Source: Leptospiraceae bacterium (GTDB lineage: Bacteria > Spirochaetota > Leptospiria > Leptospirales > Leptospiraceae). From it: 64,000 nucleotides of DNA. Shown here in pieces: positions 5,975-48,591 of the stretch. The notes below the pieces were generated by a model. It had not been told where the DNA came from. It did not search any database and worked only from the letters and a program-made list of their open reading frames with translations. The DNA is taken from assembly GCA_024233835.1 (NCBI GenBank), contig JACKPC010000001.1, positions 1,541,442 through 1,605,441 of the forward strand, given 5' to 3'. Both the position numbers and the translations under genes were made by a program. The number at the start of each line of letters is the position of its first letter. Position 1 is the first letter of the stretch.

Positions 5975-6049
5975 GGGTGAACGACGGGATTTGAACCCGC
6001 GACCACCAGAGCCACAATCTGGTGCTCTACCAACTGAGCTACGCCCACC
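5975..6049 (-). tRNA. tRNA-His (anticodon GTG)
   Basis: Reverse complement folds as a cloverleaf with extra 5' G(-1) pairing to C73, which is typical of tRNA-His. Anticodon loop TTGTGGC, T-loop GGTTCAAATCC. Confidence 0.85.
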
Positions 6050-6058
6050 ATATATCTA

Positions 6059-6132
6059 TGACCCGGAAGGGATTCGAACCCCTGACCATCTGCTTAGAAG
6101 GCAGATGCTCTATCCAGCTGAGCTACCGGGTC
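6059..6132 (-). tRNA. tRNA-Arg (anticodon TCT)
   Basis: Acceptor GACCCGG/CCGGGTC, D-arm GCTCAGCTGGATAGAGC, anticodon loop CTTCTAA, T-loop GGTTCGAATCC. Confidence 0.85.
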
Positions 6133-6139
6133 AAATGGA

Positions 6140-6211
<72 letters not shown>

Positions 6212-6562: not shown

Positions 6563-6964
6563 TCAAGAGAGGAGCCTATCAGTATCTTCCTCAATATCTT
6601 TATTTTCTTCTATCATCCCTTCTAAAATACTGGCGGATGTAGTTGTATTGCGTTCTATTGACTTAACAATTTCTTCCAACTTATTCAGCTTATCTAATAT
6701 ATCTCTCGAATTTCTTTGGCTATCCAATGCTATAGAACAAAGATTAAATACCATGTGATATAAATTCTCAAATAATTCTTCTGTTAGTGATGAGCATTCA
6801 CTATCTTCTAATTCATATTCTAAATAGGAAATTTTATCAATTCTATTTTCAATATCAGCAAGAATAGAAGAATTATAGTATCCTAACTCTCTCATTTCTT
6901 TTACTTGAGAACTCAAGATATTTATTCTTTCCCTGTAATCTATTTCTTCGTAGTAATTATCCAT
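6563..6964 (-). CDS. hypothetical acidic coiled-coil protein (133 aa), downstream of the ATPase/subtilase pair
   Basis: ORF, same strand, about 96 bp after the subtilase stop. AT-rich, like the rest of the island. Confidence 0.4.
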   Translation of the reverse strand: MDNYYEEIDYRERINILSSQVKEMRELGYYNSSILADIENRIDKISYLEYELEDSECSSLTEELFENLYHMVFNLCSIALDSQRNSRDILDKLNKLEEIVKSIERNTTTSASILEGMIEENKDIEEDTDRLLS

Positions 6965-7060
6965 TGTTTGTATTTAAAAAAGTATTTTTAATATACCCCG
7001 CATTCAGTACTATTACAAAATATTTAAACGAGTAGTAATTCAATTTTGTTTAAAACTTTT

Positions 7061-9370
7061 TCAAGTAATATTCTGTATTCTTTCTTGAATTAAATTTGAA
7101 ATTCTATTGTAAAGATCATAATTTAAAGCTTCCTTATCTTTTATGATAATTGATAATACATAATTCTCATATTCATTTGTAATATCTTTTGCCCAAGGAA
7201 AGTCATTTCTTGTAACTACAACATAATATTTAGAGAAATCTTTAAAACTCATAAACGACCAAGTAGAAGATTGAATAGTTCCTTTACCTCTTAATTTTGA
7301 AGAGATATTACGATTATTATTTACTTCTGGAATGTTCTTATATTCATCTTTTGGAGTCGATTTATCAAACATTGTGCTTATTTCTTCTAAATTATTACCT
7401 CTTACTAATTTAAAGAACATTCTAACTGCACGATATTTGACGCGAGTATTTTTAACTGGAGAAAAGTAAGATAAAGTAATTGTAATTTCTCTCTTTCTTT
7501 GTCCTGAGAAAAATTCATCTGGTAAAGGAAGCTCAAAAAAATGGTTTTTATTATTTTCAATACTTTCTATCGCATAAAGAACTATAACATCATTTCCAGA
7601 TTTATATAAAAAATCTTCATTTACTTTTCCATATCCTACCATTTTAATCTTTTTCTCATCTTCAATGCTATCAGAAAAAACTATATTATCATGCTCCGCC
7701 ATTCCTACCAATAAAGCTCTTATTAATAATATATTTTCGATTTGACTTTGTACCAGTAACTTTCCTGCCAAATTAGTAATATATGGTGTAGAAAAACTTG
7801 TTCCACAGTTTTCTGAAAATATTTTTCCATCCAAAAAAGAAGAATTTAGTGATAATTCACCAAGTCCATGTTTGTGAATCAAACTAGTTCTATAATCAAA
7901 TGCTAAATTTCCACCATAAGCTACTAATTCTGGTTTTATACTTTCAGCAATACCGAAACCAATTCGAGAAAAAGGTGAGAGAGAATTTCTTGGTGCAATC
8001 GGTTGGTAAGAAGGATCATTAGGATATTTTATAGAAGATCTCGTTTGATCATATCTTGCGATACTTCCAACTGTAAGGGAATTTATTGAGTTTGAAGGTT
8101 CCAGAATATTATGGCCATTAAAAAAATATTCTGGATAATCATATCCGTTAAGAATTTCATCTTTTATAATGCTGGAGTCAATATTTCCGGTAGATATAAT
8201 AAATAATACTCCAAGTTCATGAGCAAGATTATCTAATATCATAGATAAAGAACTCGGTTTACCTCCTTTATAAGGTCTTTTGGAATCTCCTATCGATAAA
8301 TTAAATATTTTACAATTATATTCATTATGAAGTTCTCTTACTGCAAATTCGATTTGGTTTTCTATAAATTCAGGATGATATGCACTCTCTCGATCCAACA
8401 CCCTTCCACTAATTATCCAAAAATCTGGAATAAAACTATTATTTTCTAAATTAGCAGCAACATCCCCATACAAAGCAATTCCGGCAACAGATGTACCATG
8501 GCCACTTTCATCTTCAGAGGCTAATCCTTTTATATATGACTTTGTATCTCCAATAGAAGGTGATAATAATGGATGTCCTGAAGAAATACCACTATCCAAA
8601 ATAGCAATTCTGGGAGCTTTATCATCTGGAGCAACTGGTTGTGCTATGTTTTCAATATCAAAATTTAATAGAGAATACTTTAGGGTAAAATTTGGAGGTA
8701 CGTCAATAGTACGTACATCTCGATATTTAAATAATTCTTTATAATTAAAATGATTGCATTTGGCACGTAAGATTGTAAGAAATTTTTTAGAAATTTGATC
8801 TAAGATTTGAATATTATTTTTAGAAACAAAATTTTTAAATGCAAAAATCATTTGTTCTCTATGATAATTATTTTCTGTTGGCCATAATTCTATATCTAAC
8901 AAAAAGTCTTCAGTATCGGGTAAGCCTTCTCTTTTTAATACTTCGCCTTTTCTATCTTCTTCTGTCCATAGTTTAAATTCCCTTGATGCTTCAATCAATT
9001 CTTTTCGAGTAACTTTTCCTGTTGAAGCAAAAGTAGATAAACGCTTTTCAAATTCCTCCAAGGCATTTTCAGAAGCAAATAAAAGAACAATTTCATTACT
9101 TTCTTGGCTTACAATTGTTATACCTTCTATTGACTCAAAACCTGTCGGATCAAAACTTTCCATAGTTTTTAATTTTAATAATAGTCTATCATCAAAACCG
9201 GATATTTCTTCTGATTTTCTTATTATCTTAATAAGTTCTAATTCATCTTTTAATTTTTGTGCATGTGCACTTTTATCCCCGGTAAATTTTTTAGGATTAA
9301 AAGGTTTTCCTCTTCGCTCGTTAATTACTGTTTCTCTTTGGAATTGAATATGTTCGTAAATTTCAGGCAT
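7061..9370 (-). CDS. cytoplasmic S8 family subtilisin-like serine peptidase (IetS-like)
   Basis: Catalytic triad motifs in order D (AILDSGIS), H (GHGTSVAGIA), S (GTSFSTPYI). No signal peptide. About 240-aa N-terminal extension. Start overlaps the upstream ATPase stop (TAATG). Confidence 0.8.
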   Translation of the reverse strand: MPEIYEHIQFQRETVINERRGKPFNPKKFTGDKSAHAQKLKDELELIKIIRKSEEISGFDDRLLLKLKTMESFDPTGFESIEGITIVSQESNEIVLLFASENALEEFEKRLSTFASTGKVTRKELIEASREFKLWTEEDRKGEVLKREGLPDTEDFLLDIELWPTENNYHREQMIFAFKNFVSKNNIQILDQISKKFLTILRAKCNHFNYKELFKYRDVRTIDVPPNFTLKYSLLNFDIENIAQPVAPDDKAPRIAILDSGISSGHPLLSPSIGDTKSYIKGLASEDESGHGTSVAGIALYGDVAANLENNSFIPDFWIISGRVLDRESAYHPEFIENQIEFAVRELHNEYNCKIFNLSIGDSKRPYKGGKPSSLSMILDNLAHELGVLFIISTGNIDSSIIKDEILNGYDYPEYFFNGHNILEPSNSINSLTVGSIARYDQTRSSIKYPNDPSYQPIAPRNSLSPFSRIGFGIAESIKPELVAYGGNLAFDYRTSLIHKHGLGELSLNSSFLDGKIFSENCGTSFSTPYITNLAGKLLVQSQIENILLIRALLVGMAEHDNIVFSDSIEDEKKIKMVGYGKVNEDFLYKSGNDVIVLYAIESIENNKNHFFELPLPDEFFSGQRKREITITLSYFSPVKNTRVKYRAVRMFFKLVRGNNLEEISTMFDKSTPKDEYKNIPEVNNNRNISSKLRGKGTIQSSTWSFMSFKDFSKYYVVVTRNDFPWAKDITNEYENYVLSIIIKDKEALNYDLYNRISNLIQERIQNIT

Positions 9371-10365
9371 TATTTGTTTTCTCTTAATATATTTTGTCTT
9401 GATTCTTCTCGTAGATATGAAGTTTCTATATATCTATCTTCCAAAAATTCTTTTCCTTGCATTATCATTTCCTTAATTGCTCTACGAAGAATTCTTTCTA
9501 TATCAGCATGTGATAATCCCTTAAACTTCTGCGATAACTCATTTATATCTGTACGTAAATTTCTTCTGACACCCCTTAGTTTTAATTCAATCAGTTTTTT
9601 TATTTGTTCTTTATTAGGATAGCTGAAATTTAAAACTTCTTCAAATCTTCTCCATACTGCACTATCTAATGTTTTTTCATGATTGGTAGCGGCAATTAAT
9701 ATGCTATTTCCACGATAACTATCTAACATTTGCAATAAAGCATTGACTACTCGCTTTATTTCTCCATGCTCTGAATTATCGGCTCTTTCTCTACCCAGAG
9801 CATCAAATTCATCAAATAGTACTACCATATTTGTTTTATTGATGAAGTCAAAAACCTTTCTAAGATTTGCCGAGGTTTCTCCAAGATAGGATGAAACGAT
9901 TGAGTCTATTCTAATGATTGCCAAAGGTAATTCTAACTCGAATGCTATGACTTCTGCTGAAATTGTCTTGCCACAACCCGGTGGGCCATAAAATAATATT
10001 TTGTCTACCGGTTTCAAACCATGTAGTTTTAAAATCTCTCCTCGATTATGCTCCAATAAAATTTCTTCCATAATTGACTTGTTTTCATCAGAAAGAATAA
10101 TCTCATCTATTGAGCGGGTAGGGGTAATTATATGGATTAATGGTAAACCTTTTTCTTTATCATTCGGAATTTCAAGATTCAATATTTGAAAAGAATTTTT
10201 TTCTGGTTCTTTTCCATATAAAATTCTTTCTAAATCATTTGCTAATAAGTGATGCTTTTTAGCTCTTTCCTCATTGATTATTTCCTCTGCAACCTGTTTG
10301 AATGAGTCTTTATCTCCAGAAGTGCCAAATTGAATCATCTTGCGTAAAAGTTTTGAACTGGCCAT
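9370..10365 (-). CDS. AAA+ ATPase (IetA-like)
   Basis: Walker A GPPGCGKT, Walker B VVLFDEFD, second region of homology, arginine finger region (AATNHEKTLDSAVWRRF). Translationally coupled to the subtilase. Confidence 0.8.
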   Translation of the reverse strand: MASSKLLRKMIQFGTSGDKDSFKQVAEEIINEERAKKHHLLANDLERILYGKEPEKNSFQILNLEIPNDKEKGLPLIHIITPTRSIDEIILSDENKSIMEEILLEHNRGEILKLHGLKPVDKILFYGPPGCGKTISAEVIAFELELPLAIIRIDSIVSSYLGETSANLRKVFDFINKTNMVVLFDEFDALGRERADNSEHGEIKRVVNALLQMLDSYRGNSILIAATNHEKTLDSAVWRRFEEVLNFSYPNKEQIKKLIELKLRGVRRNLRTDINELSQKFKGLSHADIERILRRAIKEMIMQGKEFLEDRYIETSYLREESRQNILRENK

Positions 10366-10425
10366 TGTTATACCTTATCACCTATTATTTATATAGTATG
10401 TTAAAATCATCAAGTAAAAAAAAAC

Positions 10426-13400
10426 TCACAGCCTATCATACTCTTCCAAAACACCCAGCTTTACTTCATCCTTAACCAGTGGGAATGTGCTGAGAATGTA
10501 TTCCAACTCTTCTCTTGTTAGTTTGTAAATCTTTGCAACCATAGCATCAATCTGGTTTTTCAAAGCCTGTCGTTCTTTTTCGACTTTCACACCATGAACC
10601 TCATGAGGCTTCTTACTGCCTTTCCCTTTCAAACCCACTTCTTCCAAAAGCTCGTCAAATTCTTCTGTAGTTCCCACAAGCTTCGCAGCTCTTTCGACTA
10701 ATTTAGAAAAGTAAGGATGGTCTTTATCCGACTGAAACCGCGGAATGGGAAGAGATAATAAGTAAAAAACATTTAATGTAGCTGATACTTTAAGTCTAAT
10801 TGTATAGTCTAAGATATAGCTATTCATTATGGATGAAAAAAATAACTGCTGAGAATTAGAAATGTTAGATTTTTCTATATTAATAGTAGCACAATTTACT
10901 TCTGATAACGATTTTTTAGGAATTATACTCGAAATTAAAGTTCGTTCATTAGTATTTGAAGCTATTCTTCTGTGCCCCCATCTATAATAATTGTAGTTAT
11001 AATGACTGACTTTTTCTAACATTTTATTATCTACCCAAAATTTTGGCTTATCATAATTTGAATCGTATTGCCAAATCATTTTACCTTCAAAAAGTGGAAT
11101 TCCATTTTTATTCTTATTAAATAAATAAGAGTTATTTGTAATATGTGATTCAGAAATAAGTTTCACATTCCATGTTCCTTCGATTTCTTCTCCCAATAGT
11201 GGATACTCTGCATATATTTTTTCTGTAATGTCGGATTCTTTCTTGGAGGAAAACTCCATGAGTGATAATGAATCGGGAGAAAATTTCTTTAGTGTTTCGA
11301 GGTTTACACTAACGTATTTTCCTTTCCTGTTATGTGCTTGCATCATTTCGTTTTCTGTTAGCATCATAAAGGCAGCGGGAACGTCTTTGGTTCCTTCTTT
11401 GGTTTTGATGGTGTTATAAGCAACAAATTTAAATCTACTATCTACATCCTCAAACATCTTCTTTCGATTTTCAAAGCCATATAAGAACTGAACTTTAGAT
11501 TCTGCAAAGAATAACTCTCGTAATTCCTTACAGCCAAGGTCTGTATAAAACCCCGATGGCATTACAATTCCAAGACTTCCTTTTGTTTTTAATAAGTAAA
11601 ACGCTCTTTCTAAGAAAAGTTTGTAGAGGTTTATATCTCCCTTGCCTCTCGCCGGATAGTCTTCACAACTTCTAAAGTATTCCGACACAGAGGAAAGGCC
11701 CATGCTGTATTCCATCCAGAGTTTCTTCAGCTTAGTATCTTTCTTGAGTGTTTCCTCTACTTTTTTCTTGGCCTGAATTTTATCCAATTTACGATAACCA
11801 TCTAAGTGCTTTTCAAAGAACTCCTGTGAATTGGGTTTCCAGGTTTCCCAGGGAGGGTTGAGTAGCATAATATCGAACCCGCCCTTGTTCATGATTTCCG
11901 AAAATTCCATCACCCAGTGAAAAGCATTCAAGTCTTCTGCCTGTATCTTGAATTCCTTAAATTGTTTTATAGCTGAAGTATCTTTCTTCAAGTCTATAAA
12001 ATCAATTTTATTCTTGGGCTTTACTTTCCATACACCTGAAATCTTGGTATTAAAATCCTTATGAAAAAGTTGTTTTAATGCACCTGTTTTCTGGTGAATT
12101 TCATCTCTTTTCTTGAGAGCAGCCTTTGGATTCTCCACTGAAAAGTAAGCCTTTATTAAATCTTCTCTCTCTTCAAAGGACTTTCGAATATCATAAAAAT
12201 CAAATAGTCTTTCGGTCTGTTGTTTCTTAGCTCCCGGAAATAATCCCTGTTGCTCTGCTTTACCCGTATTTTCAAAAGGAGAAGAAGTAAAACCGACAAG
12301 AGAATTCCCGCAGACAACATGAAAATCAATATTCGGAAGCGGTTCTTCTACCTTATCGGTAATACCCTCTATCATTGCAATAAACAGACGAAGTTTGGCA
12401 ATCTCGACTGCTTCCGGAAGAAGGTCTACTCCATAAATATTTTTACTGACTATAAATCTTCGAATTGTATAGATAGATGGAGAAGGGCTATCCATATCCT
12501 TCTTGTATTCTTTTTTCAGTGATTCCAGATTATTCGTCTTAACTACTTCGAGTAAGTTTAAATGTAATTCCGAAAGTTCATGCAAAGCTTCAATCAAGAA
12601 TTGACCGGAACCGCAGGCCGGGTCACATACGGTTATATTCGATAGCTTTTCATAATAAGCAAGGAGGTCTTTTTCAGAAGCCGAAGAAAGAAACTCCGAT
12701 ACTTTTATACACTTTATTTTTAGATTATTCTGAATAAAATATAAAAGAAAATTTTCAATTGTTTCCCTGGAAAGAAAGGAACTCAAGAAAGGTGGAGTAT
12801 AATACACACCCTGAGACTTGTTTTCACCCAGTGATTTTTCAAAAATATAACCTAAAATATAAGGGTCAATTACATCTTCATCGGTATCAGAACGTTCACT
12901 CGAATACCATAACCAGCTTTCTAAAAATGCAAAGATTTCCTGAAAGGCTTTATTGGGAATAGAAATGTCGGGATGTTTTTGTTCCAATTCATGCGTTAAA
13001 AAAAGTCCTCCATTGAGATAAGGAATTAACTCACCGGTTTCTTGAATCCAGGAAGCATCCCTATCTTCCAATTTGACACAGAGTGTTTCTAAGAAAAATC
13101 GTTTTAAAAAATTCTCATAGAAGTTACTTTTCTTGTTCTCATATTCCGCAAGCTTGCGGACCAGATACCTTTCATCTTTTTCTAAAAGATGTTTCTTCTG
13201 GAGAAAATACAGAAAGATAATTCTATCCAATAAGACCTGTGCATATAATCTCTTATCATCCGGATCTGCTACTCCTTGGATTTGTTTTACAAGCTGTAGT
13301 CTTTTTTTGGAATAGTCTGTATAAAATCTTTTGGAAACATCTTTTCTATCGAATAGGTCATCAAAGGTTTCAATCTGCTCGTATTTTAATTTAGAAACCC

Positions 13401-13749
13401 TTTGAATCCCTATTGGGTTTTCTCTATTTCTGATTTCTTCTTTTTTTATTGTATAACGAACAATTTTTGATTTTCCTTCATAACCTATTTTAACAAAAGT
13501 CATAGAAGAAAAATCTTGCGGAACGGCTAAAACACAATAGCGATTATATGTAAAGGAATTGATACGTTTGTTTATTTCAGATTTTTCCTCATAGAAGAAT
13601 ATTTCAATAAATTCGTCTTCTGCAATATTAAAAATGAATGCTCCATCATTTTCTCTGACCTGAAAACCCAAAAAAGAAAAATAGTTATACACATCATCTA
13701 TGGATTGAATTTCTAAAAACTTGCTCTTAAGCTGTTCTACCTTGGACAT
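10426..13749 (-). CDS. large gamma-class N6-adenine DNA methyltransferase, Type IIG R-M / PglX-like (1107 aa)
   Basis: Motif X GVYYTPP, motif I DPACGSGQFL, motif IV NPPW, in that order. Long N-terminal extension with a possible D...E-E-K nuclease-like segment, and a C-terminal TRD-sized region. Confidence 0.75.
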   Translation of the reverse strand: MSKVEQLKSKFLEIQSIDDVYNYFSFLGFQVRENDGAFIFNIAEDEFIEIFFYEEKSEINKRINSFTYNRYCVLAVPQDFSSMTFVKIGYEGKSKIVRYTIKKEEIRNRENPIGIQRVSKLKYEQIETFDDLFDRKDVSKRFYTDYSKKRLQLVKQIQGVADPDDKRLYAQVLLDRIIFLYFLQKKHLLEKDERYLVRKLAEYENKKSNFYENFLKRFFLETLCVKLEDRDASWIQETGELIPYLNGGLFLTHELEQKHPDISIPNKAFQEIFAFLESWLWYSSERSDTDEDVIDPYILGYIFEKSLGENKSQGVYYTPPFLSSFLSRETIENFLLYFIQNNLKIKCIKVSEFLSSASEKDLLAYYEKLSNITVCDPACGSGQFLIEALHELSELHLNLLEVVKTNNLESLKKEYKKDMDSPSPSIYTIRRFIVSKNIYGVDLLPEAVEIAKLRLFIAMIEGITDKVEEPLPNIDFHVVCGNSLVGFTSSPFENTGKAEQQGLFPGAKKQQTERLFDFYDIRKSFEEREDLIKAYFSVENPKAALKKRDEIHQKTGALKQLFHKDFNTKISGVWKVKPKNKIDFIDLKKDTSAIKQFKEFKIQAEDLNAFHWVMEFSEIMNKGGFDIMLLNPPWETWKPNSQEFFEKHLDGYRKLDKIQAKKKVEETLKKDTKLKKLWMEYSMGLSSVSEYFRSCEDYPARGKGDINLYKLFLERAFYLLKTKGSLGIVMPSGFYTDLGCKELRELFFAESKVQFLYGFENRKKMFEDVDSRFKFVAYNTIKTKEGTKDVPAAFMMLTENEMMQAHNRKGKYVSVNLETLKKFSPDSLSLMEFSSKKESDITEKIYAEYPLLGEEIEGTWNVKLISESHITNNSYLFNKNKNGIPLFEGKMIWQYDSNYDKPKFWVDNKMLEKVSHYNYNYYRWGHRRIASNTNERTLISSIIPKKSLSEVNCATINIEKSNISNSQQLFFSSIMNSYILDYTIRLKVSATLNVFYLLSLPIPRFQSDKDHPYFSKLVERAAKLVGTTEEFDELLEEVGLKGKGSKKPHEVHGVKVEKERQALKNQIDAMVAKIYKLTREELEYILSTFPLVKDEVKLGVLEEYDRL

Positions 13750-13796
13750 TACATTACCTCTGGGTTTATGACCATATTTATATATATCTTACGTTT

Positions 13797-13833
13797 ACAC
13801 TTCTATAAACTCTTTGATGCTGAGTTCTTTTCC
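13797..13833. repeat. copy 1 of an ~37-bp repeat corresponding to the 3' coding end of ORF 19048-19509 (…KELSIKEFIE-stop)
   Basis: ACTTCTATAAACTCTTTGATGCTGAGTTCTTTTCC is near-identical to 19050-19086 and 18146-18182. Confidence 0.7.
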
Positions 13834-13836
13834 TAT

Positions 13837-14190
13837 TTATAAAAGAAGAGAGTTTAAGATTTCTTTAATCTGGTTTTCTAAAACTGGAATATCATCTGTT
13901 ATGATATTCCAAACAACCTGATAATCAATACCAAAGTACTCATGAGTTATGATATTTCGAACACCGACAATACTTCTCCAATCAATATTATTGTATTCTA
14001 TTCTCATTTTATCTGAAATTCTTGCAGCTGCTTCTCCGATATCCTGTAAAGCTTTTGCACAAGCATATTTTGTTTTTAAATCATTCAGAAAATCTTGCTT
14101 ACTCAGTCCTTTTACAAATATTTGTATAACTTTAGTATTATCTAAAATATGTTTTAGCCTATCTATATCTGAAAGTTTTTCATTTCTCAT
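13837..14190 (-). CDS. hepT: HepT-like (DUF86/HEPN) toxin
   Basis: Conserved Rx4HxY motif (RNIITHEY). About 117 aa. Overlaps the upstream MntA gene. Confidence 0.8.
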   Translation of the reverse strand: MRNEKLSDIDRLKHILDNTKVIQIFVKGLSKQDFLNDLKTKYACAKALQDIGEAAARISDKMRIEYNNIDWRSIVGVRNIITHEYFGIDYQVVWNIITDDIPVLENQIKEILNSLLL

Positions 14191-14491
14191 ATATTAGAAT
14201 CTTATCCTTTTCTATTCTATTAGCAAAATCAAGTGTTTCATTATGATTGTCGTATAATGCACCGCTGGAAATGACATCTACTTCTATGGGAAACATTTCT
14301 TTAATATCCAAAATCATTCTTGAAAACAAAAGCCCCACTTTTTGCTCAGGTTCTAATTCTAAAAGTATATCCAGATCACTTTCATGATCCATTTCATTTC
14401 TTGCATAAGAACCGAATAAATAAACTTTTTTTATAGGTTTATCTGCTGCATAAGCAAACATTTTCTCTTTTACATCTTCTATAGAAATCAT
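14180..14491 (-). CDS. mntA: MntA-like minimal nucleotidyltransferase antitoxin
   Basis: GSYARNE...DSDLDILL (GS-x-n-DxD) Pol-beta NTase motif. 103 aa. 11-nt overlap with hepT. Confidence 0.8.
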   Translation of the reverse strand: MISIEDVKEKMFAYAADKPIKKVYLFGSYARNEMDHESDLDILLELEPEQKVGLLFSRMILDIKEMFPIEVDVISSGALYDNHNETLDFANRIEKDKILIYEK

Positions 14492-14520
14492 ATATATCTC
14501 TTTTTTATATTCTATCCTTT

Positions 14521-17500
14521 CTATATATAAATACTTAATACTAACTGGCTATGAATTTCCGAACTTTTGTAAAGACTTCCTCTCATACTGGAATCCTCTA
14601 AAATCACTTCATTATAGAATGTAAATAGAGCGGAAGCAAAATCATTAAAAGCGACTTTAGGAACCTGTTTAATGTTAATATTATATTTATTTAAAGTATC
14701 TTTTAATTTATTTGCTTTATCCGAAGAAAGCTGAGTCGTTCCCAGTATTTGCATCATTTCTTTAAAAACAATCTCTGCATCTTCTCGAATTGTTTTAGCA
14801 AACTCAAAAAAGTTCTCTTCCACGAAAAGAGCTTTTTGTTTTTTTAAACCCTGCAAAGTCTGTATAAGTTGAACCTGAATCCCCTTCACGGAACTCACTT
14901 TTTGAGAAACCTTATGAGGATCGGCTTCTTTAAGTCTTTCAATAAAGATTTCTTTAAATGCAAGATTTATCTCTTCTTCTGCCTTTTCCACCCATTCTTT
15001 ATTTTCCACTTCCACACGTGTAAAACCCTCTGACTGAAGATTAGCCTTTTCAAAGAACTCTTCCGGAAAAGCATATTCTACATTTTCATTTCCTTTTTTA
15101 CATAAGAATACACGGGAAAGAAGGTCTCTATTCTGATTCCGTTCTCCATAGATTTCATATAATTTATAGATGGTGTTAGGATTTTTATTGGTAATAGTAT
15201 AATATTCAGCTTTCTTTTTAGGAACACCCTTAAAATCAGAACTCCTGAGATGATTTTCTTTAGCTGCAACGAATAGCTTCGCTCTAAAGAAATCTTCTTC
15301 CGTTTCTCCTTCTATACCGGAAAAAAGAGAATTACTTTTACTGTTTATTTCATATTCACTTACGGAATTGGCATTATAATTCTTTTTAAGTTGTTCACCT
15401 ATAATCTGTGGATTGATCTCTTCTTCATCGGAACTTAAAATAGCCATTTCTTTTCCTAAAAGAGTATTTACCTGGCTTATTTTAGCACTTAAGATTTCGA
15501 GTAACTTTAAAAAACGCTCTAAAATTTTATCAGGTGTAAAATTAAAAACCTTAATTTTATTTTCAGAACCAATACGATTGATTCTACCCACTCTCTGTAC
15601 AATTTTCATTGGATTCCAGGGAAGGTCAAAATTGATAAGTAAATCTGCATCCTGTAAGTTTACACCTTCAGCTAAAACGTCGGTAGAAATTAAGAGATTT
15701 AATTCTTCACTTTCTGTTATATTTTCTACTTTTCTGGCTCTGGGTGCAAACTTATCTAAAACTTTAGATATTCTACCCGAAGTTCTATCATCACCACTTA
15801 CAGTATCAAATAATAAATCGATTTTATTATCTTCACAGGCTTGTTGAATATGATATTTAATATATTCTAAAGTATCCTTATAGGAACAAAAGCAAAGAGC
15901 CTTAATAAAATGAGAACGGTTTAATCTATCTAAGAAAATTTCTATCTTGGGCTCTTTAAGGCTTAGTGGTTCATCAGGTTTTTCTCGTAAAGGTATAATG
16001 TAAGATTCTATAAAATCATTTATTGTTTTTATATCAGTTTCACACCATTTTATAACGGTTTCTTTATCAATTAAATCCTCTTTTCCATCTTTTATATCTT
16101 CTGAATAATCCTCTAATTCCGGTTCTTCCTCTAATTTTTTCTGATTATATTTTTCAATAACTTCATTCCAGTCCTCAGAATCTATTTCGGAGCGAAGAGT
16201 TGTAATTTTTGCTTTGATGTTTTCAAGGGAACAGTAGAAAGAGTAAACACTGGATTCGATTCTTTTGAACAAAAGAAGCTTATACAAATAAGAAAGTGTT
16301 TCCCCATTGGAATTACCGGAAAGGCGTATATGGGGTAAAAATAAACTATCGAGGAATGAGTTTATATTTTCAAATATTGCTTCAAAGCCTCCTGTAAATT
16401 CGTATTCTATTTTATAAACAGTTGGTTCCTGAAACTCTAAAGGTTTACCTCCTACTTTTACATTCTTATATTTTTCTTTTATGGAAGACCTCATCCGAAG
16501 AAGCATCACAGAGTTTAAAATATCAATAATTCTTTTTTTAGCTCGCTCATAATCTGGATTATTTTCTAACTCACGAATACTGATTCCTTTACGAAGATTT
16601 TTAATTAGTTCTGAAAAAACTTGAAAACTGGATGGGTATAGACCTGCATTTGTAAGAGAAGCTTCTACTGTTGAAAGTTTTACCAGGTTTAATAAGTCGC
16701 TTACAGAGTTATTGAAAGGAGTTGCTGTTAATAACAAAACATCTGATCGAGAAGAATAAGGATGCAGTAGACTGATATGCTGATATAGCCTTGTATCTTT
16801 ATTTCTGGCTCTGTGAGCTTCATCTACTACAATTAGGTCAAATTTCTTTTTTCGTAATTTACTTTCTATGGCAGAAGGAAGCATTTGGCTTAACTTCCCC
16901 TGTGAAAGAAAAACTAAATCGGATGAAGCATCTATAGAAAAATATTTTGAAAGAGTTTCTTTCCACTGATGAAGAACAGTAGGAGGGGTTAGTATTAAAA
17001 CTTTTTTTCCTCTTTTATAGTATCTATAAATGACTTCGGAAGCTGTAAATGTTTTTCCGAGTCCTACAGAGTCAGAAACAATGGCTCCTCCAAATCGTTC
17101 TATTTTGTTTAAAATATTCTCAGCACCAATTCGTTGAAACTCAGCTAATTGATCAGTTCCTTGAAGTTCTTCTTCCTCCATCTTTCCAATAAAGTAATAA
17201 ACCATATACACAAGCATCTGAAAAGGAGTAAGGAATATATCTTCCCTTTTTTGAGTATGCTGTTTTTCTCTCAGGATTCCTTTTACAATCTGGAGTAATT
17301 CCGGACGAAAATCTATTCCTTCAGATTCCCATAGCTCATCAAACCATATTTTTAATTCGTTATATACCGGTATATCTGAAGAAGTTAGATTTAGCTCACT
17401 GTTTTCAGTAAGTCCACTTTTCGAAAAATTAGAAGAACCAACAATTGTTCTTACTTGTTCTATATTTCCCGGTAATACTGTTCGAGCAAGATAAAGCTTT

Positions 17501-17907
17501 GCATGAAAAAATCGATTTAACATCAACCGAATATGGATTTTATCATTTTCCAGCAGTTCAATAATTTTGAGTAGCTTTTCCTTTTCTAAACCGGAAACCT
17601 CAGTCTCAATATTTTGAATAATTTCTCTTTTTAATTCTGAATCAGTTTTTGGAATTTTAAATGCTGTTTCCAAAACCTTTGCAGTTGTATAATCCGTTCT
17701 TGGGCTTATCAGGAACTTAATCTGAACATCGTTTTTTTGGAAAAACTCATTATTTTCCAGACTATCCATAACCAGTTCAAATCCACTCAGATAGAAATAT
17801 CCTACGGCAATTCTCATTTCCCTGATATAAGGGAAAATTATGTGATTAATTACCCTATCAAACTGCCTATTTTCATCTCGGTTATCTATGAAAGCTGGAA
17901 ATTGCAT
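14521..17907 (-). CDS. PLD-family nuclease fused to SNF2/SF2 helicase (1128 aa); SauUSI / DISARM-DrmD+DrmC-like architecture
   Basis: N-terminal HxK(x)4D(x)6GSxN phospholipase-D motif (HAKLYLARTV…GSSNFSKSG). Then helicase motif I (GLGKT), DEAH box (IVVDEAHRARN), motif III (LLLTATP) and helicase-C motifs (QRVGRINRIG). Confidence 0.8.
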   Translation of the reverse strand: MQFPAFIDNRDENRQFDRVINHIIFPYIREMRIAVGYFYLSGFELVMDSLENNEFFQKNDVQIKFLISPRTDYTTAKVLETAFKIPKTDSELKREIIQNIETEVSGLEKEKLLKIIELLENDKIHIRLMLNRFFHAKLYLARTVLPGNIEQVRTIVGSSNFSKSGLTENSELNLTSSDIPVYNELKIWFDELWESEGIDFRPELLQIVKGILREKQHTQKREDIFLTPFQMLVYMVYYFIGKMEEEELQGTDQLAEFQRIGAENILNKIERFGGAIVSDSVGLGKTFTASEVIYRYYKRGKKVLILTPPTVLHQWKETLSKYFSIDASSDLVFLSQGKLSQMLPSAIESKLRKKKFDLIVVDEAHRARNKDTRLYQHISLLHPYSSRSDVLLLTATPFNNSVSDLLNLVKLSTVEASLTNAGLYPSSFQVFSELIKNLRKGISIRELENNPDYERAKKRIIDILNSVMLLRMRSSIKEKYKNVKVGGKPLEFQEPTVYKIEYEFTGGFEAIFENINSFLDSLFLPHIRLSGNSNGETLSYLYKLLLFKRIESSVYSFYCSLENIKAKITTLRSEIDSEDWNEVIEKYNQKKLEEEPELEDYSEDIKDGKEDLIDKETVIKWCETDIKTINDFIESYIIPLREKPDEPLSLKEPKIEIFLDRLNRSHFIKALCFCSYKDTLEYIKYHIQQACEDNKIDLLFDTVSGDDRTSGRISKVLDKFAPRARKVENITESEELNLLISTDVLAEGVNLQDADLLINFDLPWNPMKIVQRVGRINRIGSENKIKVFNFTPDKILERFLKLLEILSAKISQVNTLLGKEMAILSSDEEEINPQIIGEQLKKNYNANSVSEYEINSKSNSLFSGIEGETEEDFFRAKLFVAAKENHLRSSDFKGVPKKKAEYYTITNKNPNTIYKLYEIYGERNQNRDLLSRVFLCKKGNENVEYAFPEEFFEKANLQSEGFTRVEVENKEWVEKAEEEINLAFKEIFIERLKEADPHKVSQKVSSVKGIQVQLIQTLQGLKKQKALFVEENFFEFAKTIREDAEIVFKEMMQILGTTQLSSDKANKLKDTLNKYNINIKQVPKVAFNDFASALFTFYNEVILEDSSMRGSLYKSSEIHSQLVLSIYI

Positions 17908-17967
17908 GGTTCGTTCACCTTATACCGAAAGTCGATAGGAATTAAAGTAAAAATCCTTCCCCCTCTA

Positions 17968-18115
17968 ATTTTTCAGAATAATCTACAATTTTAGTTTATG
18001 AATTAAGAAAGACAAGAATTTTACAGTCATAAATGGGAAAAAGTCATGAAATTGGGTTTTAATGCAAACTTCCCACAAACATCCACAGTTTTCGGTTTGT
18101 ATTTCAGTGTTATCG
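17968..18115. repeat. copy A of a ~150-bp repeat homologous to the region upstream of ORF 19048-19509 (19521-19665)
   Basis: Roughly 85% identity over about 150 bp, judged by eye alignment (TTTTTCAGAATAATCTACAA…AAACATCCACAGTTTTCG…). Sits immediately upstream of the PLD-SNF2 gene start. Confidence 0.7.
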
Positions 18116-18145
18116 AGAGAAAGGAAAGCTTTTAACTGGTTTTTA

Positions 18146-18243
18146 TACTTCTATAAATTCTTTGATACTGAGTTCTTTTCCTTTTTTCAGAATAATCTAC
18201 AAATTTAGTTTAGGAATTTAAAAAGACAAGAGTTTCTGTAATG
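18146..18243. repeat. junction: copy 2 of the 37-bp gene-3'-end repeat directly abutting a truncated (~60 bp) copy of the upstream-region repeat
   Basis: TACTTCTATAAATTCTTTGATACTGAGTTCTTTTCC followed by TTTTTTCAGAATAATCTACAAATTTAGTTTAGGAATTTAAAAAGACAAGAGTTT. Confidence 0.7.
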
Positions 18244-18514
18244 GATCTTCTTCTACTTCAATACTTTCTTCATATAATACAGCAGGATCTAAGTCGATGC
18301 AGTTATAAGGATCAAAAGTACCGCTTACATCCCAGGCCAGAGTATTATTCATTACTGTACATTTTTCAAAAAAAAACGACTCATCCTGTAATTTACAAAA
18401 AACTCCCTTATCTATAAGATGACTGATGTCATAGAGTTTAATCTTACCATCATCAAAATATAGGTATACTTTATGATTTTCAGTTGGGAAAACTTGAACT
18501 ATTTTAGGTATCAT
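18218..18514 (-). CDS. DUF2442-family protein
   Basis: 98 aa. Pattern V-x-F-DG…L…FDP…DLDP…LY typical of DUF2442. Adjacent to a DUF4160 gene. Confidence 0.6.
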   Translation of the reverse strand: MIPKIVQVFPTENHKVYLYFDDGKIKLYDISHLIDKGVFCKLQDESFFFEKCTVMNNTLAWDVSGTFDPYNCIDLDPAVLYEESIEVEEDPLQKLLSF

Positions 18515-18593
18515 TAAAATTCTCCAGTATCAAATCGGGTCAATTTTTTTTATTTCTCCATGCTGCATGGCTGATTCCCAGTTTTCTAATAAC

Positions 18594-18776
18594 TCATTCT
18601 GACCAGGCTAAAACTAACTTTAATTGCCTGGAAGGAAGAGCACCCTTTATAATTACAGAGTTATTTATATCAACGATAGCCTGTAAGTCTCCATATTCTG
18701 CATGGAAATGGGGTGGCATGTGATCATTCCAATACATGTATATTTTAATACCAAAAAATTCCGAAACAAGTGGCAT
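18594..18776 (-). CDS. DUF4160-family protein
   Basis: 60 aa. MP…FFGIKIYMYWNDHMPPHFHAEYG matches the DUF4160 hallmark (…H-PPHFH…). Commonly paired with DUF2442. Confidence 0.65.
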   Translation of the reverse strand: MPLVSEFFGIKIYMYWNDHMPPHFHAEYGDLQAIVDINNSVIIKGALPSRQLKLVLAWSE

Positions 18777-18788
18777 ATTCTATCCTTT

Positions 18789-19043
18789 CTATATATAAAA
18801 ACTAAAGACTTCCAGTCTTCCTTTTATCTTTGTTAGAATTACTTCAGCAATATATCTGCACCACCCAACCGCGCGGTTTAAAAGATCGACTTGATGATTG
18901 GCTCGTGTTGAAGAACCATCTGCTTTTAGTGGCTTCCCGCAAATTCCGTACTTATAGATGTCTTTCTTTTCATTATCTATAATTTGATAAAGATGATGTT
19001 CTTCTTCACTATCATGTGAATTACCATGAACTTTTTTTGCCAT
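18789..19043 (-). CDS. hypothetical protein (84 aa)
   Basis: ORF only. Weak GIY-YIG-like YQII…IYKYGI segment, not enough for a call. Confidence 0.35.
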   Translation of the reverse strand: MAKKVHGNSHDSEEEHHLYQIIDNEKKDIYKYGICGKPLKADGSSTRANHQVDLLNRAVGWCRYIAEVILTKIKGRLEVFSFYI

Positions 19044-19047
19044 CTTC

Positions 19048-19509
19048 TTACCTTTCTATAAACTCTTTGATGCTGAGTTCTTTTCCTTTACCCCAGGCTT
19101 CCCTGTTGAAATAGGTTTCATACAATCGTTTGGGAGAATACTCCCAGTCTTCCTTTCCGGTTTTTTGGGTATATGCGTCTTTTGCTACATATAAAAGGTC
19201 TTCGGATGTATCAGCGGGCATTTGTTCCGGGTTTTCGATGACACTGTAATAAAACTTTTTTCCTTTTTCTACAGTTGAGACGCGGGAATATAAGAAACTA
19301 TCAACCGAGAATGAATCTTCTTCTGAATAGCCTACAGCTTTTGCATATTCCGGGCCATCGAGTTTAAAGAGTAAGTCTGTAAGAATTTCCTCAAATGAGT
19401 AAATTTCGGATATAGTTCTTTTGGAAAGATTATCTACCAGAACATCGATATTGAGTGCATTATTTTCTTCAGCTTCCTGTAGTATTTCCCAGAATTGGTT
19501 TTCTTCCAC
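19048..19509 (-). CDS. hypothetical protein (DUF4240-like), probable GTG start with strong SD; resident gene whose ends are repeated across the island
   Basis: ORF. AAGGAG SD 7 nt upstream of GTG 19509. 3' end 19050-19086 and upstream region 19521-19665 are both repeated elsewhere in the island. Confidence 0.5.
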   Translation of the reverse strand: MEENQFWEILQEAEENNALNIDVLVDNLSKRTISEIYSFEEILTDLLFKLDGPEYAKAVGYSEEDSFSVDSFLYSRVSTVEKGKKFYYSVIENPEQMPADTSEDLLYVAKDAYTQKTGKEDWEYSPKRLYETYFNREAWGKGKELSIKEFIER

Positions 19510-19520
19510 TTCCTTACTCC

Positions 19521-19665
19521 TTTTTTCAGAATAATCTACAAATTTAGTTTAGGATTTTAAAAAGACAAGAGTTTTACAGTCATAAATGTGAAAAAATTAT
19601 GAAATAGGGACTTTATACATATTTCGGATAAACATCCACAGTTTTCGTTCCGCATTTCACTGATA
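19521..19665. repeat. copy B (upstream region of ORF 19048-19509) of the ~150-bp repeat
   Basis: Homologous to 17968-18115 and partially to 18183-18243. Confidence 0.7.
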
Positions 19666-19688
19666 TACAACCCCTATATAAGCGATAT

Positions 19689-19804
19689 ACAGTCCATATC
19701 ATAGTAATGAAACAGTCCGTATCATAGTAATAGAACAGTTCGTATTATAGTAATGAAACGGTTCGTATTATAGTAATGAAACGGTCTGTATCATAGTAAT
19801 AATA
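19689..19804. repeat. tandem array, 5 copies of a 23-24-bp unit (consensus ACAGTYCGTATCATAGTAATGAA) plus a degenerate sixth
   Basis: Seen directly: units at 19689-19711, 19712-19735, 19736-19758, 19759-19781, 19782-19804. Confidence 0.8.
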
Positions 19805-46900: not shown

Positions 46901-47354
46901 TGAGCTTTTTGAGAGTTTCCTGTTCCTTCTTGCCATCGGGAATGTGGGAGAGAGAAAACGCGGGTGGCCTGGTTTTTTGCAGAGAGTAGCAAAAATGAAA
47001 AGCACCTAAGAATCGAAATAGGTTTTTGACAGAGACAATGGAATGTTCTTCGGTGATGCTACTGCCGTGGGCCGCGGAATTTCCATAACGGCGGATAAGT
47101 TCAATTTCCCGGGAGAGCCTGGCCGGGCGGATGATTTCTTGAAAATTGGCATCGAAAATAAGAGCGGAAAGATTGTCGGAATAGGGCCTGGTGAGTTTCT
47201 TGTCATGGTCATACATCCAGTTGACAGCCAGCTCCAGGGCACTACGGGCAAGAATGGCACTGGCTTTGGGCGAAAGGAGCGCAAGTCTTTCGGCTTCTTT
47301 TGCCTCAGCAAAAATTGTGGGCCAGGCGGATTGGAGAAAAACAAAGTTCGACAT
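43908..47354 (-). CDS. hsdR: Type I restriction enzyme R subunit HsdR (start chosen at MSNFVF…; ORF track extends to 47474)
   Basis: N-terminal MSNFVFLQSAW consensus and PD-(D/E)xK (…DYVLW…VIEAKRT). Helicase motif I MATGSGKT and motif II IIIDETHR. TGAnATG coupling to the hsdS stop. Confidence 0.85.
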   Translation of the reverse strand: MSNFVFLQSAWPTIFAEAKEAERLALLSPKASAILARSALELAVNWMYDHDKKLTRPYSDNLSALIFDANFQEIIRPARLSREIELIRRYGNSAAHGSSITEEHSIVSVKNLFRFLGAFHFCYSLQKTRPPAFSLSHIPDGKKEQETLKKLKALEQEKEQLQAKEAEERKKQQEQARENESLRRELERLKQEIADRREERNKETDPMQVVPVLVTEKETRERFIDLLLRDAGWEHLQKGKDLEYKVTGLPKSVNPSGTGYADYVLWGKDGKPLAVIEAKRTMLHAESGRHQAELYADCLEKMHGQRPIIFYTNGFETYLYDDTFYSERQTQGFYTQDELQLLIDRRLDKKDLRNFSVNHNIINRPYQLEALRRVAEAYVISDRKGNLKGFKREALLVMATGSGKTRTAAAIVDMLFKCNWVKRVLFLADRNALVTQAKKAFNNHLPELSSIDLTRDKVNLEARLVFSTYPTMMNQIDHTRIDNKRYFGVGHFDLIIIDETHRSVYQKYKAIFEYFDSLLLGLTATPKKDFDKNTYSLFQIEDDNPTFAYELDAAVKDKYLVPAKAYSVPLKFQREGIKYHELSEKEKQEYEEKFGDPSNEEAPDSISSEALNNWLFNQDTVDKVLEHLMKDGIKVEGGDKIGKTIIFAKNHNHAEFIKKRFEKNYPEYSNKFLQVIDNYIEKAEDLVEKFSDEHSEKDPQIAVSVDMMDTGVDAPRVVNLVFFKLVRSVTKFWQMIGRGTRLCPDLFAPGVHKKEFLIFDYCENFEFFEAKPEGYISKNVKSLQQQIFEAKARVLVIINQKTETTEEEKQIKELYAKELQHIISTLDEDRFIVQKQWRYVKEYSYKEKWLNLNKLDLSIISEHLSHLEPPQKGDDDKARRFDVLVHSSMLYLLETNSLSQYTNKIAGLAKELEKKANIPQIAKQIELIQSVQTDAYWQKAHVHSLEELRKSIRSLIKYLDPEKQEPIYTNFKDKLDTTRIDEKYPLDIYTSLQSYKDRVESYIRNNKDHITIYKLRHNESITEHDINALERILFTDDVAGSKEQFVQEYGERPLGVFIRSITGLETEALNQAFAEFLQAGNLRGDQMTFVKTIINYLAKNGTLEKRVLNESPFIDINDGGLSGVFPNREDAIKVVKIIDAINGNADVA

Positions 47355-47355
47355 A

Positions 47356-48513: not shown

Positions 48514-48591
48514 TTCATACCTCCCGTTGTTTGAACAGGATTTTTGGATTTCCATCGTGGGTGGAATTGTGGTATTTGAATGGTTGGTTTT

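Follow-up and report, generated by a model that had tools for sequence, protein, structure and literature searches.

Genes and domains at the locus

The window, a stretch of 64,000 nucleotides from a Leptospiraceae bacterium, carries a low-GC defence island beside a tRNA cluster. In this island a gene for a fusion of a phospholipase D (PLD) nuclease with an SNF2 helicase is followed on the same strand by a toxin-antitoxin pair and by the gene of a large adenine methyltransferase, with repeated sequences at several of the junctions (Table 1). IetAS lies next door to this set, and IetA (343 bits to its model) is the sole AAA+ protein of the island.

Table 1 Features of the PLD-SNF2/methyltransferase locus (positions in the window; aa, amino acids)
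Feature	Position	Strand	Details
PLD-SNF2 fusion gene	14521..17907	-	1128 aa, ATG start; putative restriction (nuclease-translocase) subunit
PLD (HKD) nuclease domain	17329..17814	-	aa 32-193; PLDc_2 E 4.9e-12
H135-x-K137 of PLD	17497-17505	-	
GSSN of PLD	17428-17439	-	aa 157-160
SNF2 ATPase lobe 1	16474..17148	-	aa 254-478; SNF2-rel_dom/ResIII/DEAD
Lobe 1 motifs			Walker A GLGKT 282-286, DEAH 362-365, TATP 394-397
SNF2 ATPase lobe 2	15418..15948	-	aa 654-830; motif VI QRVGRINRIG 771-780
Clade-specific C-terminal domain	14524..15417	-	aa 831-1128, 298 aa; three-stranded sheet and helical bundle
Eco57I/MmeI-like gamma-class N6-adenine methyltransferase	10426..13749	-	1107 aa; putative modification and specificity subunit
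Methyltransferase N-terminal alpha/beta domain	13435..13749	-	aa 1-105; restriction-endonuclease-like fold
Methyltransferase helical domain	12715..13434	-	aa 106-345; like MmeI/DrdV spacer and HsdM N-terminal domain
MntA-like nucleotidyltransferase antitoxin	14180..14491	-	103 aa; NTP_transf_2 E 1.6e-12
HepT-like HEPN RNase toxin	13837..14190	-	117 aa; HepT-like E 1.1e-26
Junction repeat after HepT	13794..13847	.	repeat search; copy of DUF4240 ORF 3' end
36-nt junction repeat	14507..14542	.	repeat search; spans PLD-SNF2 stop codon, upstream of MntA
145-nt intergenic element	17969..18113	.	repeat search and alignment; upstream of PLD-SNF2

Translation and Pfam confirm the 1128-aa PLD::SNF2 fusion described in the first-pass annotation. 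The reading frame holds FFHAKLYL, VGSSNFS, GLGKT, DEAH and QRVGRINRIG, and the domain search proposed there returned PLDc_2, SNF2-rel_dom (aa 267-478, E 5.2e-16), ResIII (aa 254-398, 4.4e-14) and Helicase_C (aa 654-780, 3.1e-19), each above its gathering cut-off. A 3.4-kb open reading frame with four domain matches at about 31% GC is far beyond chance. Among 19 aligned full-length relatives, the PLD residues H135, K137, G157-S158-S159-N160, N169 and E171 are invariant, which shows that the PLD motif, present once per chain, is not degenerate; G282-K285, D362-H365 and Q771-G780 of the ATPase core are invariant as well. The alternative considered earlier, a housekeeping RapA/HepA-type protein with a degenerate PLD motif, can be discarded, given a score of 77.5 bits against the NF003426 cut-off of 576, an intact PLD, and a patchy, plasmid-borne distribution. 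Family members were found in 185 plasmid records, and the phage genomes searched gave only four weak matches.

A PDB sequence search with the whole protein retrieved ISWI, Snf2, RapA and Chd1, all through the ATPase core only, and the PLD domain alone gave nothing meaningful. The best PADLOC model is 'C3a139 HKD+Snf2' (244 bits); C3a139 was rejected as a system name, being the label of a type III CRISPR-accessory cluster (PMC6546367). The C-terminal domain matched no known fold and is a candidate partner-docking or regulatory domain.

Linkage with an adenine methyltransferase

The genomic context of the fusion was analysed at 80 loci sampled via the helicase motifs alone. These generic motifs also drew 45 SNF2 loci without PLD in the match, which were kept as an internal control for the 35 loci with PLD. 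A homolog of the window methyltransferase is present at 31 of the 35 PLD loci and at one of the 45 control loci (Fisher p = 1e-16), so that the co-occurrence with N6A methyltransferases for which the first-pass annotation had proposed to look does exist. The gene spacing at PLD loci is mostly 0-26 nt, or the genes overlap. Among the four PLD loci without the methyltransferase, two contigs stop right after the helicase gene, and in another case the upstream end of the examined sequence lies about 300 nt from the helicase start. In the reverse search, starting from the Nostoc and Allochromatium homologs of the methyltransferase, the PLD-SNF2 gene was found immediately upstream. With respect to close relatives, a Leptospiraceae MAG has an Eco57I/MmeI-type methyltransferase directly after PLD-SNF2 with a 16-nt overlap, and Leptospira santarosai has a gene for 1008 aa, with no Pfam match on record, 6 nt after it. 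In the window, a 771-nt insertion separates the PLD-SNF2 stop from the methyltransferase, in agreement with the distance of 0.8 kb and the adjacent HepT/MntA noted before. The two genes form an operon that is conserved across bacteria and archaea, not a stray fusion, and the functional tie of the defence gene to its neighbouring methyltransferase is stronger than could be foreseen from the window.

The methyltransferase itself has a SAM-binding motif DPACGSG (aa 376-382) and a motif NPPW (aa 631-634), both invariant in the homolog alignment, with the target-recognition region C-terminal to these motifs I and IV. Its fold is similar to those of MmeI, DrdV, M.EcoKI and PglX, and a PDB sequence search found MmeI only, marginally. 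What was observed directly is which domains are present, that their motifs are conserved, that the genes are linked in an operon, and that further partner proteins are absent. We consider it rather probable (about 70%) that the PLD-SNF2 protein and the downstream methyltransferase are the subunits of a two-part defence module, ATP-dependent and similar to restriction-modification.

It may be argued instead that the methyltransferase is a self-sufficient Type IIG/IIL enzyme, next to which PLD-SNF2 would act in defence on its own or just as an accessory. This would agree with the PADLOC label (REase_MTase_IIG, 214 bits over aa 350-1093), with the RefSeq name of the Haloquadratum partner ('type IIL restriction-modification enzyme MmeI'), with the weak REase-like similarity of the N-terminal domain, and with the arrangement of helical spacer, gamma-class domain and C-terminal target-recognition region that is shared with MmeI and DrdV (Type IIL/IIG). 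However, these enzymes cut by means of their own N-terminal PD-(D/E)xK nuclease, whereas the gamma-class motifs and target-recognition region of the window protein are not accompanied by a conserved site of this kind: among 17 aligned homologs no residue is invariant in aa 2-141, the sequence at the 'ExK' position is E-I-F, and F, Y or C takes the place of the canonical D...ExK lysine. All four Pfam matches, Eco57I and MmeI_Mtase among them, are methylase families, and at E <= 0.01 no nuclease-domain family was found in the protein, including the MmeI N-terminal domain; the authors describing a related Lactococcus operon likewise recognised no restriction domain (PMC6098607). Independent genes would also not be expected to form a tight, often overlapping operon across phyla that is found from both sides. 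Self-sufficiency of the methyltransferase is therefore improbable. Since its N-terminal domain lacks conserved catalytic residues, the PLD is probably the sole nuclease of the pair, although, with a fold that is still nuclease-like and the acidic E49 present in 8 of 10 close relatives, some residual nuclease activity of the methyltransferase is conceivable.

The HepT/MntA cassette between the two genes

The inserted genes have the properties of a type VII toxin-antitoxin system. MntA keeps the GS-x10-DLD motif (G27-S28...D39-L-D41), HepT keeps R78-x4-H83 (HEPN Rx4-6H), and the genes overlap by 11 nt. Both Pfam matches are above their cut-offs, whereas the NCBIfam equivalog scores of HepT and MntA (39.5 and 38.1) are below the cut-off of 60. 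The surrounding repeats recur in the neighbourhood. Further copies of the repeat after HepT, which looks like a recombination scar at the cassette boundary, are found at 18142-18195 and 19047-19100, and a 92% identical copy of the 36-nt repeat (18775-18810) precedes the next small-gene cassette. The 145-nt element, of which an 83% identical copy precedes a DUF4240/Tox-URI2 cassette (19522-19666), includes promoter-like hexamers (18015-17988) and may be a promoter-like sequence common to several cassettes. The repeated junction sequences, which also occur at neighbouring cassettes, indicate that HepT/MntA is a mobile cassette, apparently an intact type VII system that was a later arrival between the two genes. 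The insertion could have uncoupled expression of the flanking genes.

In the first-pass annotation HepT/MntA was counted as part of the module, and one could envisage a functional third arm that serves as abortive-infection backup, for example by release upon inhibition of the restriction-modification pair or a breakdown of its expression. The preserved catalytic motifs and the location inside the operon, with spacers of only 29 and 87 nt to the flanking genes, are in line with such a role, and HEPN/MNT modules inside restriction-modification and BREX-related loci have been reported as backup effectors (PMC3710099, PMC12839542). Moreover, a related locus (L001) has an MNT gene, together with DUF4160/DUF2442, at the same intergenic site. 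The similarity between this MNT and the window MntA is, however, at motif level only (E 4e-4), so the two are independent insertions and a shared ancestral insertion is ruled out. According to gene calls, the two closest-relative loci have no insertion between the genes, nor does most of the wider family, and the junction repeats mark HepT/MntA as mobile. A third arm is therefore unlikely.

Relation to known systems and proposed mode of action

Coupling of a PLD nuclease to an ATP-driven SF2 motor, with dimerisation leading to a single active site, is a feature of SauUSI (Type IV) and CglI/NgoAVII. A SauUSI-like enzyme for sensing and cleavage of modified DNA, as was initially proposed, would match in its architecture of PLD and SF2 motor (bioRxiv 10.64898/2026.09.23.753747), and the 298-aa C-terminal domain is uncharacterised. 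However, no SRA/YTH-like modified-base reader was found in that domain, which argues against a methylation-sensing Type IV enzyme, and a methyltransferase partner at nearly all PLD loci does not fit one either; we regard it as very unlikely.

Class 1 DISARM, like the window, has an SNF2 helicase (DrmD), a PLD (DrmC) and an Eco57I-like adenine methyltransferase (DrmMI) in one locus, but PLD and SNF2 are separate proteins there and fused here, and the core formed by DrmA and DrmB (DUF1998) is missing here. In MANTIS (Gao_RL, BREX-related type 2; MtsA-D), the effector MtsD combines in one chain an HKD/PLD nuclease at the N-terminus and an SF2 ATPase of the Swi2/Snf2 type, and an N6-adenine methyltransferase provides specificity and self-marking, with restriction of unmethylated DNA (bioRxiv 10.64898/2026.09.23.753747; PMC12839542). 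That methyltransferase belongs to a different family, and MANTIS depends on MtsA, a DUF499 AAA+ loader, and on the small protein MtsB (DUF3780), both absent from the island. The next-best matches of the window pair are the DrmD and DrmMI models. For PLD-SNF2, the DrmD models give 142 bits (NF038317, cut-off 610) and 101 bits (NF038318, cut-off 950), the MtsD-type equivalog NF042964 gives 164.6 bits in three stretches (cut-off 1100), and PADLOC PLD_Helicase gives 105 bits. Partial PADLOC/NCBIfam matches to DrmD (114-142 bits), HmaA (105), MtsD-type PLD_Helicase (105-165) and DrmMI (89) might suggest that the pair is what is left of a larger known system, or a pared-down version of one (class 1 DISARM, MANTIS/Gao_RL/BREX-related type 2 or Hma), possibly inactive after the loss of its partners, but this is hardly credible with scores so far under the equivalog cut-offs (142 vs 610; 165 vs 1100), every catalytic motif intact, a two-gene form that is the rule at PLD loci instead of a one-off decay, and DrmA/DrmB, DUF499 and DUF3780 absent from related loci inspected as well as, by Pfam and PADLOC, from the ten scanned ORFs, which span 6566-19509.

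Type ISP (LlaGI/LlaBIII) and Type III (EcoP15I) systems combine a nuclease, an SF2 motor, a gamma- or beta-class adenine methyltransferase and a target-recognition region. As in these systems, the methyltransferase would set the specificity of the window pair, and hemimethylation and dependence on site orientation would be expected. Type ISP enzymes are single polypeptides with an Mrr-type PD-(D/E)xK nuclease, whereas the pair here consists of two proteins and has a PLD as nuclease. In Type III systems, the PD-(D/E)xK nuclease is at the C-terminus of Res, the motor is not of the SNF2 kind, and Mod belongs to the beta class; assignment of the window pair to Type III was rejected, as its methyltransferase is Eco57I/gamma-class and its nuclease a metal-independent PLD that is N-terminal to the SNF2 motor.

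If PLD-SNF2 and the methyltransferase act as two subunits, the latter would bind a short, probably asymmetric site via its target-recognition region and methylate an adenine (NPPW), by which host DNA is marked as self, its own nuclease-like N-terminal domain presumably having no catalytic activity. Bound to its site on foreign DNA that is not methylated, the methyltransferase would recruit or license PLD-SNF2, most likely through contacts of its variable N-terminal domain with the C-terminal domain of the helicase. With one HKD motif per chain, two PLD-SNF2 chains must pair to obtain one PLD active site, as paired chains do in Nuc and BfiI. ATP hydrolysis by the SNF2 motor would then drive movement along double-stranded DNA, and the PLD site would cleave the two strands successively. 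Thus, we infer physical interaction, dimerisation, cutting of unmethylated DNA and translocation-coupled cleavage. PLD-helicase dimers sharing one active site were shown for MtsD and SauUSI (bioRxiv 10.64898/2026.09.23.753747). Since MtsD requires an AAA+ loader and a co-regulator, and its cutting of DNA in vitro has not yet been achieved (bioRxiv 10.64898/2026.09.23.753747), the two-protein picture may be too simple.

A more far-reaching scenario, which we put forward as speculation that is doubtful in its entirety, is that the pair represents an unclassified and very widespread type of ATP-dependent restriction-modification, with thousands of loci filed as 'single-chain' Type IIG/IIL. An MmeI-like enzyme would have lost its nuclease, and the dead domain would have become the place where a dimeric SNF2-PLD translocase-nuclease, by means of its fast-evolving C-terminal domain, docks; unlike MANTIS, the system would need no AAA+ loader. 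In Leptospiraceae, toxin-antitoxin cassettes would in addition use the intergenic joint for insertion and supply the module with addiction or abortive-infection backup.

Should the inferred mechanism hold, a considerable part of the 'Type IIG/IIL' database entries would be the methylation and specificity halves of two-component, motor-driven systems of which the nuclease is a metal-independent PLD. This would change the annotation of such loci, the pairing of methylome recognition motifs with restriction activity, and the counts of defence-system finders, and, with only two proteins, the module could be compared to MANTIS, DISARM and SauUSI as a simpler case of how a methyltransferase licenses PLD-motor effectors. 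The window contributes a divergent Leptospiraceae subfamily and a toxin-antitoxin cassette inserted within a restriction-modification operon.

The suggestion that the module is possibly undescribed does not hold, as the window pair belongs to a known but uncharacterised two-gene kind that is usually annotated as Type IIG/IIL. The same two genes were reported in 2018 as the Lactococcus plasmid operon orf33/orf34 (pLd8-type), a predicted restriction-modification system (PMC6098607), and PLD-SNF2 genes beside Cj0031-like methyltransferases were listed in a 2023 inversion survey that cites a CDD model for the fusion, cd09178 (PMC9881135). Literature searches for cd09178, Eco57I+SNF2+PLD and HKD+SNF2+methylase gave no characterised namesake, and no experimental test of the two-gene module, in its window or Lactococcus form, was found in the literature. 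The Lactococcus plasmid homolog was recovered directly in the present analysis. Like the window, the Lactococcus/Leuconostoc pair consists of a PLDc_2+SNF2+Helicase_C protein and a large Eco57I/IIG-like N6-adenine methyltransferase that includes a target-recognition region but in which no restriction domain can be recognised, and it is plasmid- or island-borne; both components are present in the window, with their adjacency broken by the toxin-antitoxin cassette, which is not found between the Lactococcus genes. The PLD-SNF2 proteins are about 30% identical over aa 1-831 and differ in the C-terminal domain. The Lactococcus loci have an inverted spare specificity domain and an invertase (phase variation), whereas neither an invertase-type Pfam match near the methyltransferase, among the scanned ORFs, nor, in a repeat scan, an inverted copy of the target-recognition region was found in the window. 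Invertase/shufflon features also occur at Natrialba loci.

A nuclease-helicase fusion and its linked methyltransferase

The fusion of a PLD nuclease with an SNF2 helicase core, noticed in the first-pass annotation, is confirmed by the ORF, by its translation, in which all the quoted motifs are present, and by Pfam assignments (see table). The possibility that this protein, PLD-SNF2, is a housekeeping enzyme of the RapA/HepA type with a degenerate PLD motif can be dismissed: the RapA equivalog model, whose cut-off is 576 bits, gave 77.5, and the PLD site (H135, K137, G157-S158-S159-N160, N169 and E171) is invariant in an alignment of the window protein with 18 full-length relatives (29-46% identity), so the nuclease motif is not degenerate. 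In the same alignment Walker A (G282-L-G-K285), D362-E-A-H365 and Q771-R-x-G-R-x-x-R-I-G780 are also invariant. The nearest relatives (43-46% identity) include proteins of Leptospira and other spirochaetes, and 4290 PLD-SNF2 proteins were found at E <= 1e-10 among the scored candidates.

The proposed link to an adenine methyltransferase proved to be a conserved gene pair. Scanning genomes with patterns from two generic helicase peptides gave 80 loci: 35 encode a PLD domain, and the other 45, which encode SNF2 proteins without PLD, form an unplanned control. A homolog of the window methyltransferase was detected by tblastn in 31/35 PLD loci vs 1/45 non-PLD loci (Fisher p = 1e-16). Among the four PLD loci without a match, two contigs stop just past the helicase gene and in a third the helicase begins ~300 nt from the upstream end of the available sequence. 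The linkage was found from both search directions, since two chosen methyltransferase homologs (Nostoc, Allochromatium) each have PLD-SNF2 directly upstream. In most loci the genes are separated by 0-26 nt or overlap, as in a Leptospiraceae MAG where PLD-SNF2 is followed by an Eco57I/MmeI-type methyltransferase with a 16-nt overlap; the order is reversed in one methyltransferase subtype. The gene 6 nt past PLD-SNF2 in Leptospira santarosai encodes 1008 aa and has no Pfam match recorded. Plasmids carry the pair too (185 records, among them haloarchaeal replicons and dairy plasmids of Lactococcus); in phage genomes it is rare. The original reading of a defence role is judged right.

In the window methyltransferase (METHYLTRANSFERASE), motif I (DPACGSG, 376-382) and motif IV (NPPW, 631-634) are invariant in 17 homologs, and the C-terminal region is homologous to target-recognition parts of Type IIG enzymes and Alw26I-family methyltransferases. 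A partial database entry with 100% identity is labelled 'MAG: Leptospiraceae bacterium'. Such proteins are named Type IIG/IIL enzymes in databases, which would imply a built-in nuclease. Within aa 2-141, no invariant residue was found among the 17 aligned homologs, the site matching the (D/E)xK lysine is F, Y or C, and no nuclease-domain family was matched in Pfam at E <= 0.01. The N-terminal domain thus looks, from its sequence, like a dead nuclease, so that nuclease activity in the pair can credibly be assigned to PLD alone.

Several loci show further arrangements. In Natrialba (L043, 13853-15967), a 704-aa inverted partial methyltransferase/target-recognition copy lies between helicase and methyltransferase, and in Lactococcus pJM1F (L081, 8763-10230) an inverted TaqI-like specificity domain and an Mpi invertase adjoin the methyltransferase; these shufflon-like arrangements imply phase-variable specificity in other members of the pair. 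In Leptospira santarosai (L082, 1-6665) the module adjoins a JetB/MksE-JetC-like (Wadjet-type) cluster, a Fic protein and another N6_Mtase, which is another defence-island context. At L075 (9324-13738) the gene directly after that of a 1169-aa SNF2 protein without PLD encodes an IetA-like AAA+ ATPase, which shares 38% identity with the IetA of the window; this may be another kind of helicase-ATPase pairing.

Relation to known systems and possible mechanism

The best PADLOC model for PLD-SNF2 is 'C3a139 HKD+Snf2' (244 bits), a label taken from a study that surveyed the gene neighbourhood of type III CRISPR loci (PMC6546367). Matches to DrmD, HmaA, BrxH, DpdE and MtsD-type PLD_Helicase are partial and far under the NCBIfam cut-offs. 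A PADLOC and Pfam scan of ten ORFs spanning 6566-19509 gave neither DrmA/DrmB, which belong to DISARM, nor the DUF499 loader and DUF3780 that are required by MANTIS, the characterised relative. MANTIS acts through MtsD, a dimeric effector that has a single PLD site and is a structural relative of SauUSI (bioRxiv 10.64898/2026.09.23.753747).

The arrangement had been considered possibly undescribed, which does not hold. Precisely this two-gene arrangement has been reported from a Lactococcus plasmid, in a paper noting a 'Type IIG' methyltransferase without restriction domain and proposing PLD-SNF2 as its supplier (PMC6098607), and the pair is also listed in a table, beside Cj0031-like methyltransferases subject to programmed inversion (PMC9881135). 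In one Lactococcus locus that we recovered, the pair is accompanied by an invertase and a spare specificity domain in inverted orientation. The literature searched contained no experimental test of the pair. The window pair is a new, divergent addition to a known, uncharacterised two-gene class, which is large, mis-annotated and without biochemistry, and whose logic would not surprise the specialist.

It had been suggested that aa 850-1128 be searched for an SRA/YTH-like reader; none was found. As modelled by AF2 (pLDDT 79), aa 831-1128 form a helical bundle with a three-stranded sheet. When 1.84 billion proteins were searched with a profile of the region, 17 representatives were obtained, each a C-terminus or fragment of the PLD-SNF2 family. 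This domain is clade-specific and fast-evolving, and not a known modified-base reader; with no reader domain in PLD-SNF2, methylation sensing is not borne out.

What was observed directly is which domains are present, that their catalytic motifs are conserved, that the two genes are linked as an operon, that the nuclease domain of the methyltransferase looks dead, and that other partner proteins are absent. Nuc, BfiI, SauUSI and MtsD are single-HKD dimers, and SNF2 proteins are double-strand translocases. By analogy with these and with Type III/ISP/IIG enzymes, we consider an ATP-dependent two-subunit mechanism in which unmethylated DNA is cut to be likely (probability roughly 0.7). The methyltransferase would recognise a short asymmetric site and (hemi)methylate it; on unmethylated DNA it would license a PLD-SNF2 dimer, which would translocate at the expense of ATP and cut at a single active site, shared by its two chains and independent of metal. 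The likely interface would be formed by the variable C-terminus of PLD-SNF2 and the N-terminus of the methyltransferase.

The HepT/MntA cassette and the surrounding island

HepT and MntA, which keep their catalytic signatures (Rx4H and GSx10DxD, respectively), had been included in the module. They are rather a secondary passenger at the joint between PLD-SNF2 and methyltransferase, because the two closest-relative loci checked through gene calls lack them, the joint of the closest genome locus holds a different set, and the border repeats recur at neighbouring cassettes. In that locus (L001, a Leptospiraceae MAG, 45% identity), the joint at 6668-7595 contains DUF4160, DUF2442 and an orphan MNT resembling window MntA at the motif only, with no HepT. 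The recurring intergenic element contains promoter-like hexamers, and its 145-nt form precedes PLD-SNF2 and the DUF4240 cassette; this repetition points to common regulation, or to a shuffling of cassettes within the island.

Features of the window
Feature	Position	Strand	Remarks
PLD-SNF2, 1128 aa	14521-17907	-	ATG start
PLDc_2	aa 32-193 of PLD-SNF2		Pfam, above gathering threshold
SNF2-rel_dom/ResIII/DEAD	aa 254-478 of PLD-SNF2		Pfam, above gathering thresholds
Helicase_C	aa 654-780 of PLD-SNF2		Pfam, above gathering threshold
MntA-like nucleotidyltransferase	14180-14491	-	29 nt after PLD-SNF2
HepT	13837-14190	-	11-nt overlap with MntA; 87 nt before methyltransferase
Eco57I/MmeI-type methyltransferase, 1107 aa	10426-13749	-	60 nt before IetA
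IetA, 331 aa	9370-10365	-	PADLOC 343 bits
IetS, 769-aa S8 peptidase	7061-9370	-	PADLOC 716 bits; start codon overlaps IetA stop
DUF2442, Tox-URI2 toxin, DUF4240	18218-19509		upstream of PLD-SNF2
DUF4240 (153 aa), then Tox-URI2 (84 aa)	18789-19509	-	probably toxin/immunity pair
36-nt junction repeat	14507-14542; 18775-18810		at cassette borders
Copies of DUF4240 ORF 3' end, 39-54 nt	13794-13847; 18142-18195		past HepT; past DUF2442
Intergenic element, 57-145 nt, three copies	17965-18235; 19518-19666		upstream of PLD-SNF2; DUF2442 3' end; upstream of DUF4240
Tandem array of 23-nt unit	19689-19801		upstream of DUF4240 cassette
tRNA-His/Arg/Pro cluster	5975-6211		start of low-GC block
Type I restriction-modification locus	43908-52328	-	second restriction-modification locus
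HsdM	50850-52328	-	
Likely HsdS	47356-48633		between HsdR and HsdM
2293-aa ORF	53894-60775	+	no Pfam match at E <= 0.001

On the same strand the order is PLD-SNF2, MntA, HepT, methyltransferase, IetA, IetS, the last two forming a complete IetAS defence pair (7061-10365) directly downstream of the methyltransferase. The block of ~6.2-19.9 kb has a GC content of 31-34% vs ~40% in the flanks, with ftsQAZ on one side and an MFS transporter on the other, and is a chromosomal defence island. The tandem array (unit ACAGTCCGTATCATAGTAATGAA-like, at least four overlapping 44-nt matches) adjoins the shared 145-nt element and may be an operator or iteron array. Elsewhere in the window, a giant ORF is present as well as the Type I locus, whose 1188-aa HsdR combines an N-terminal DUF4145 (HEPN-like) with HSDR_N, ResIII and EcoEI_R_C, and where the likely HsdS and three small ORFs lie between HsdR and HsdM.
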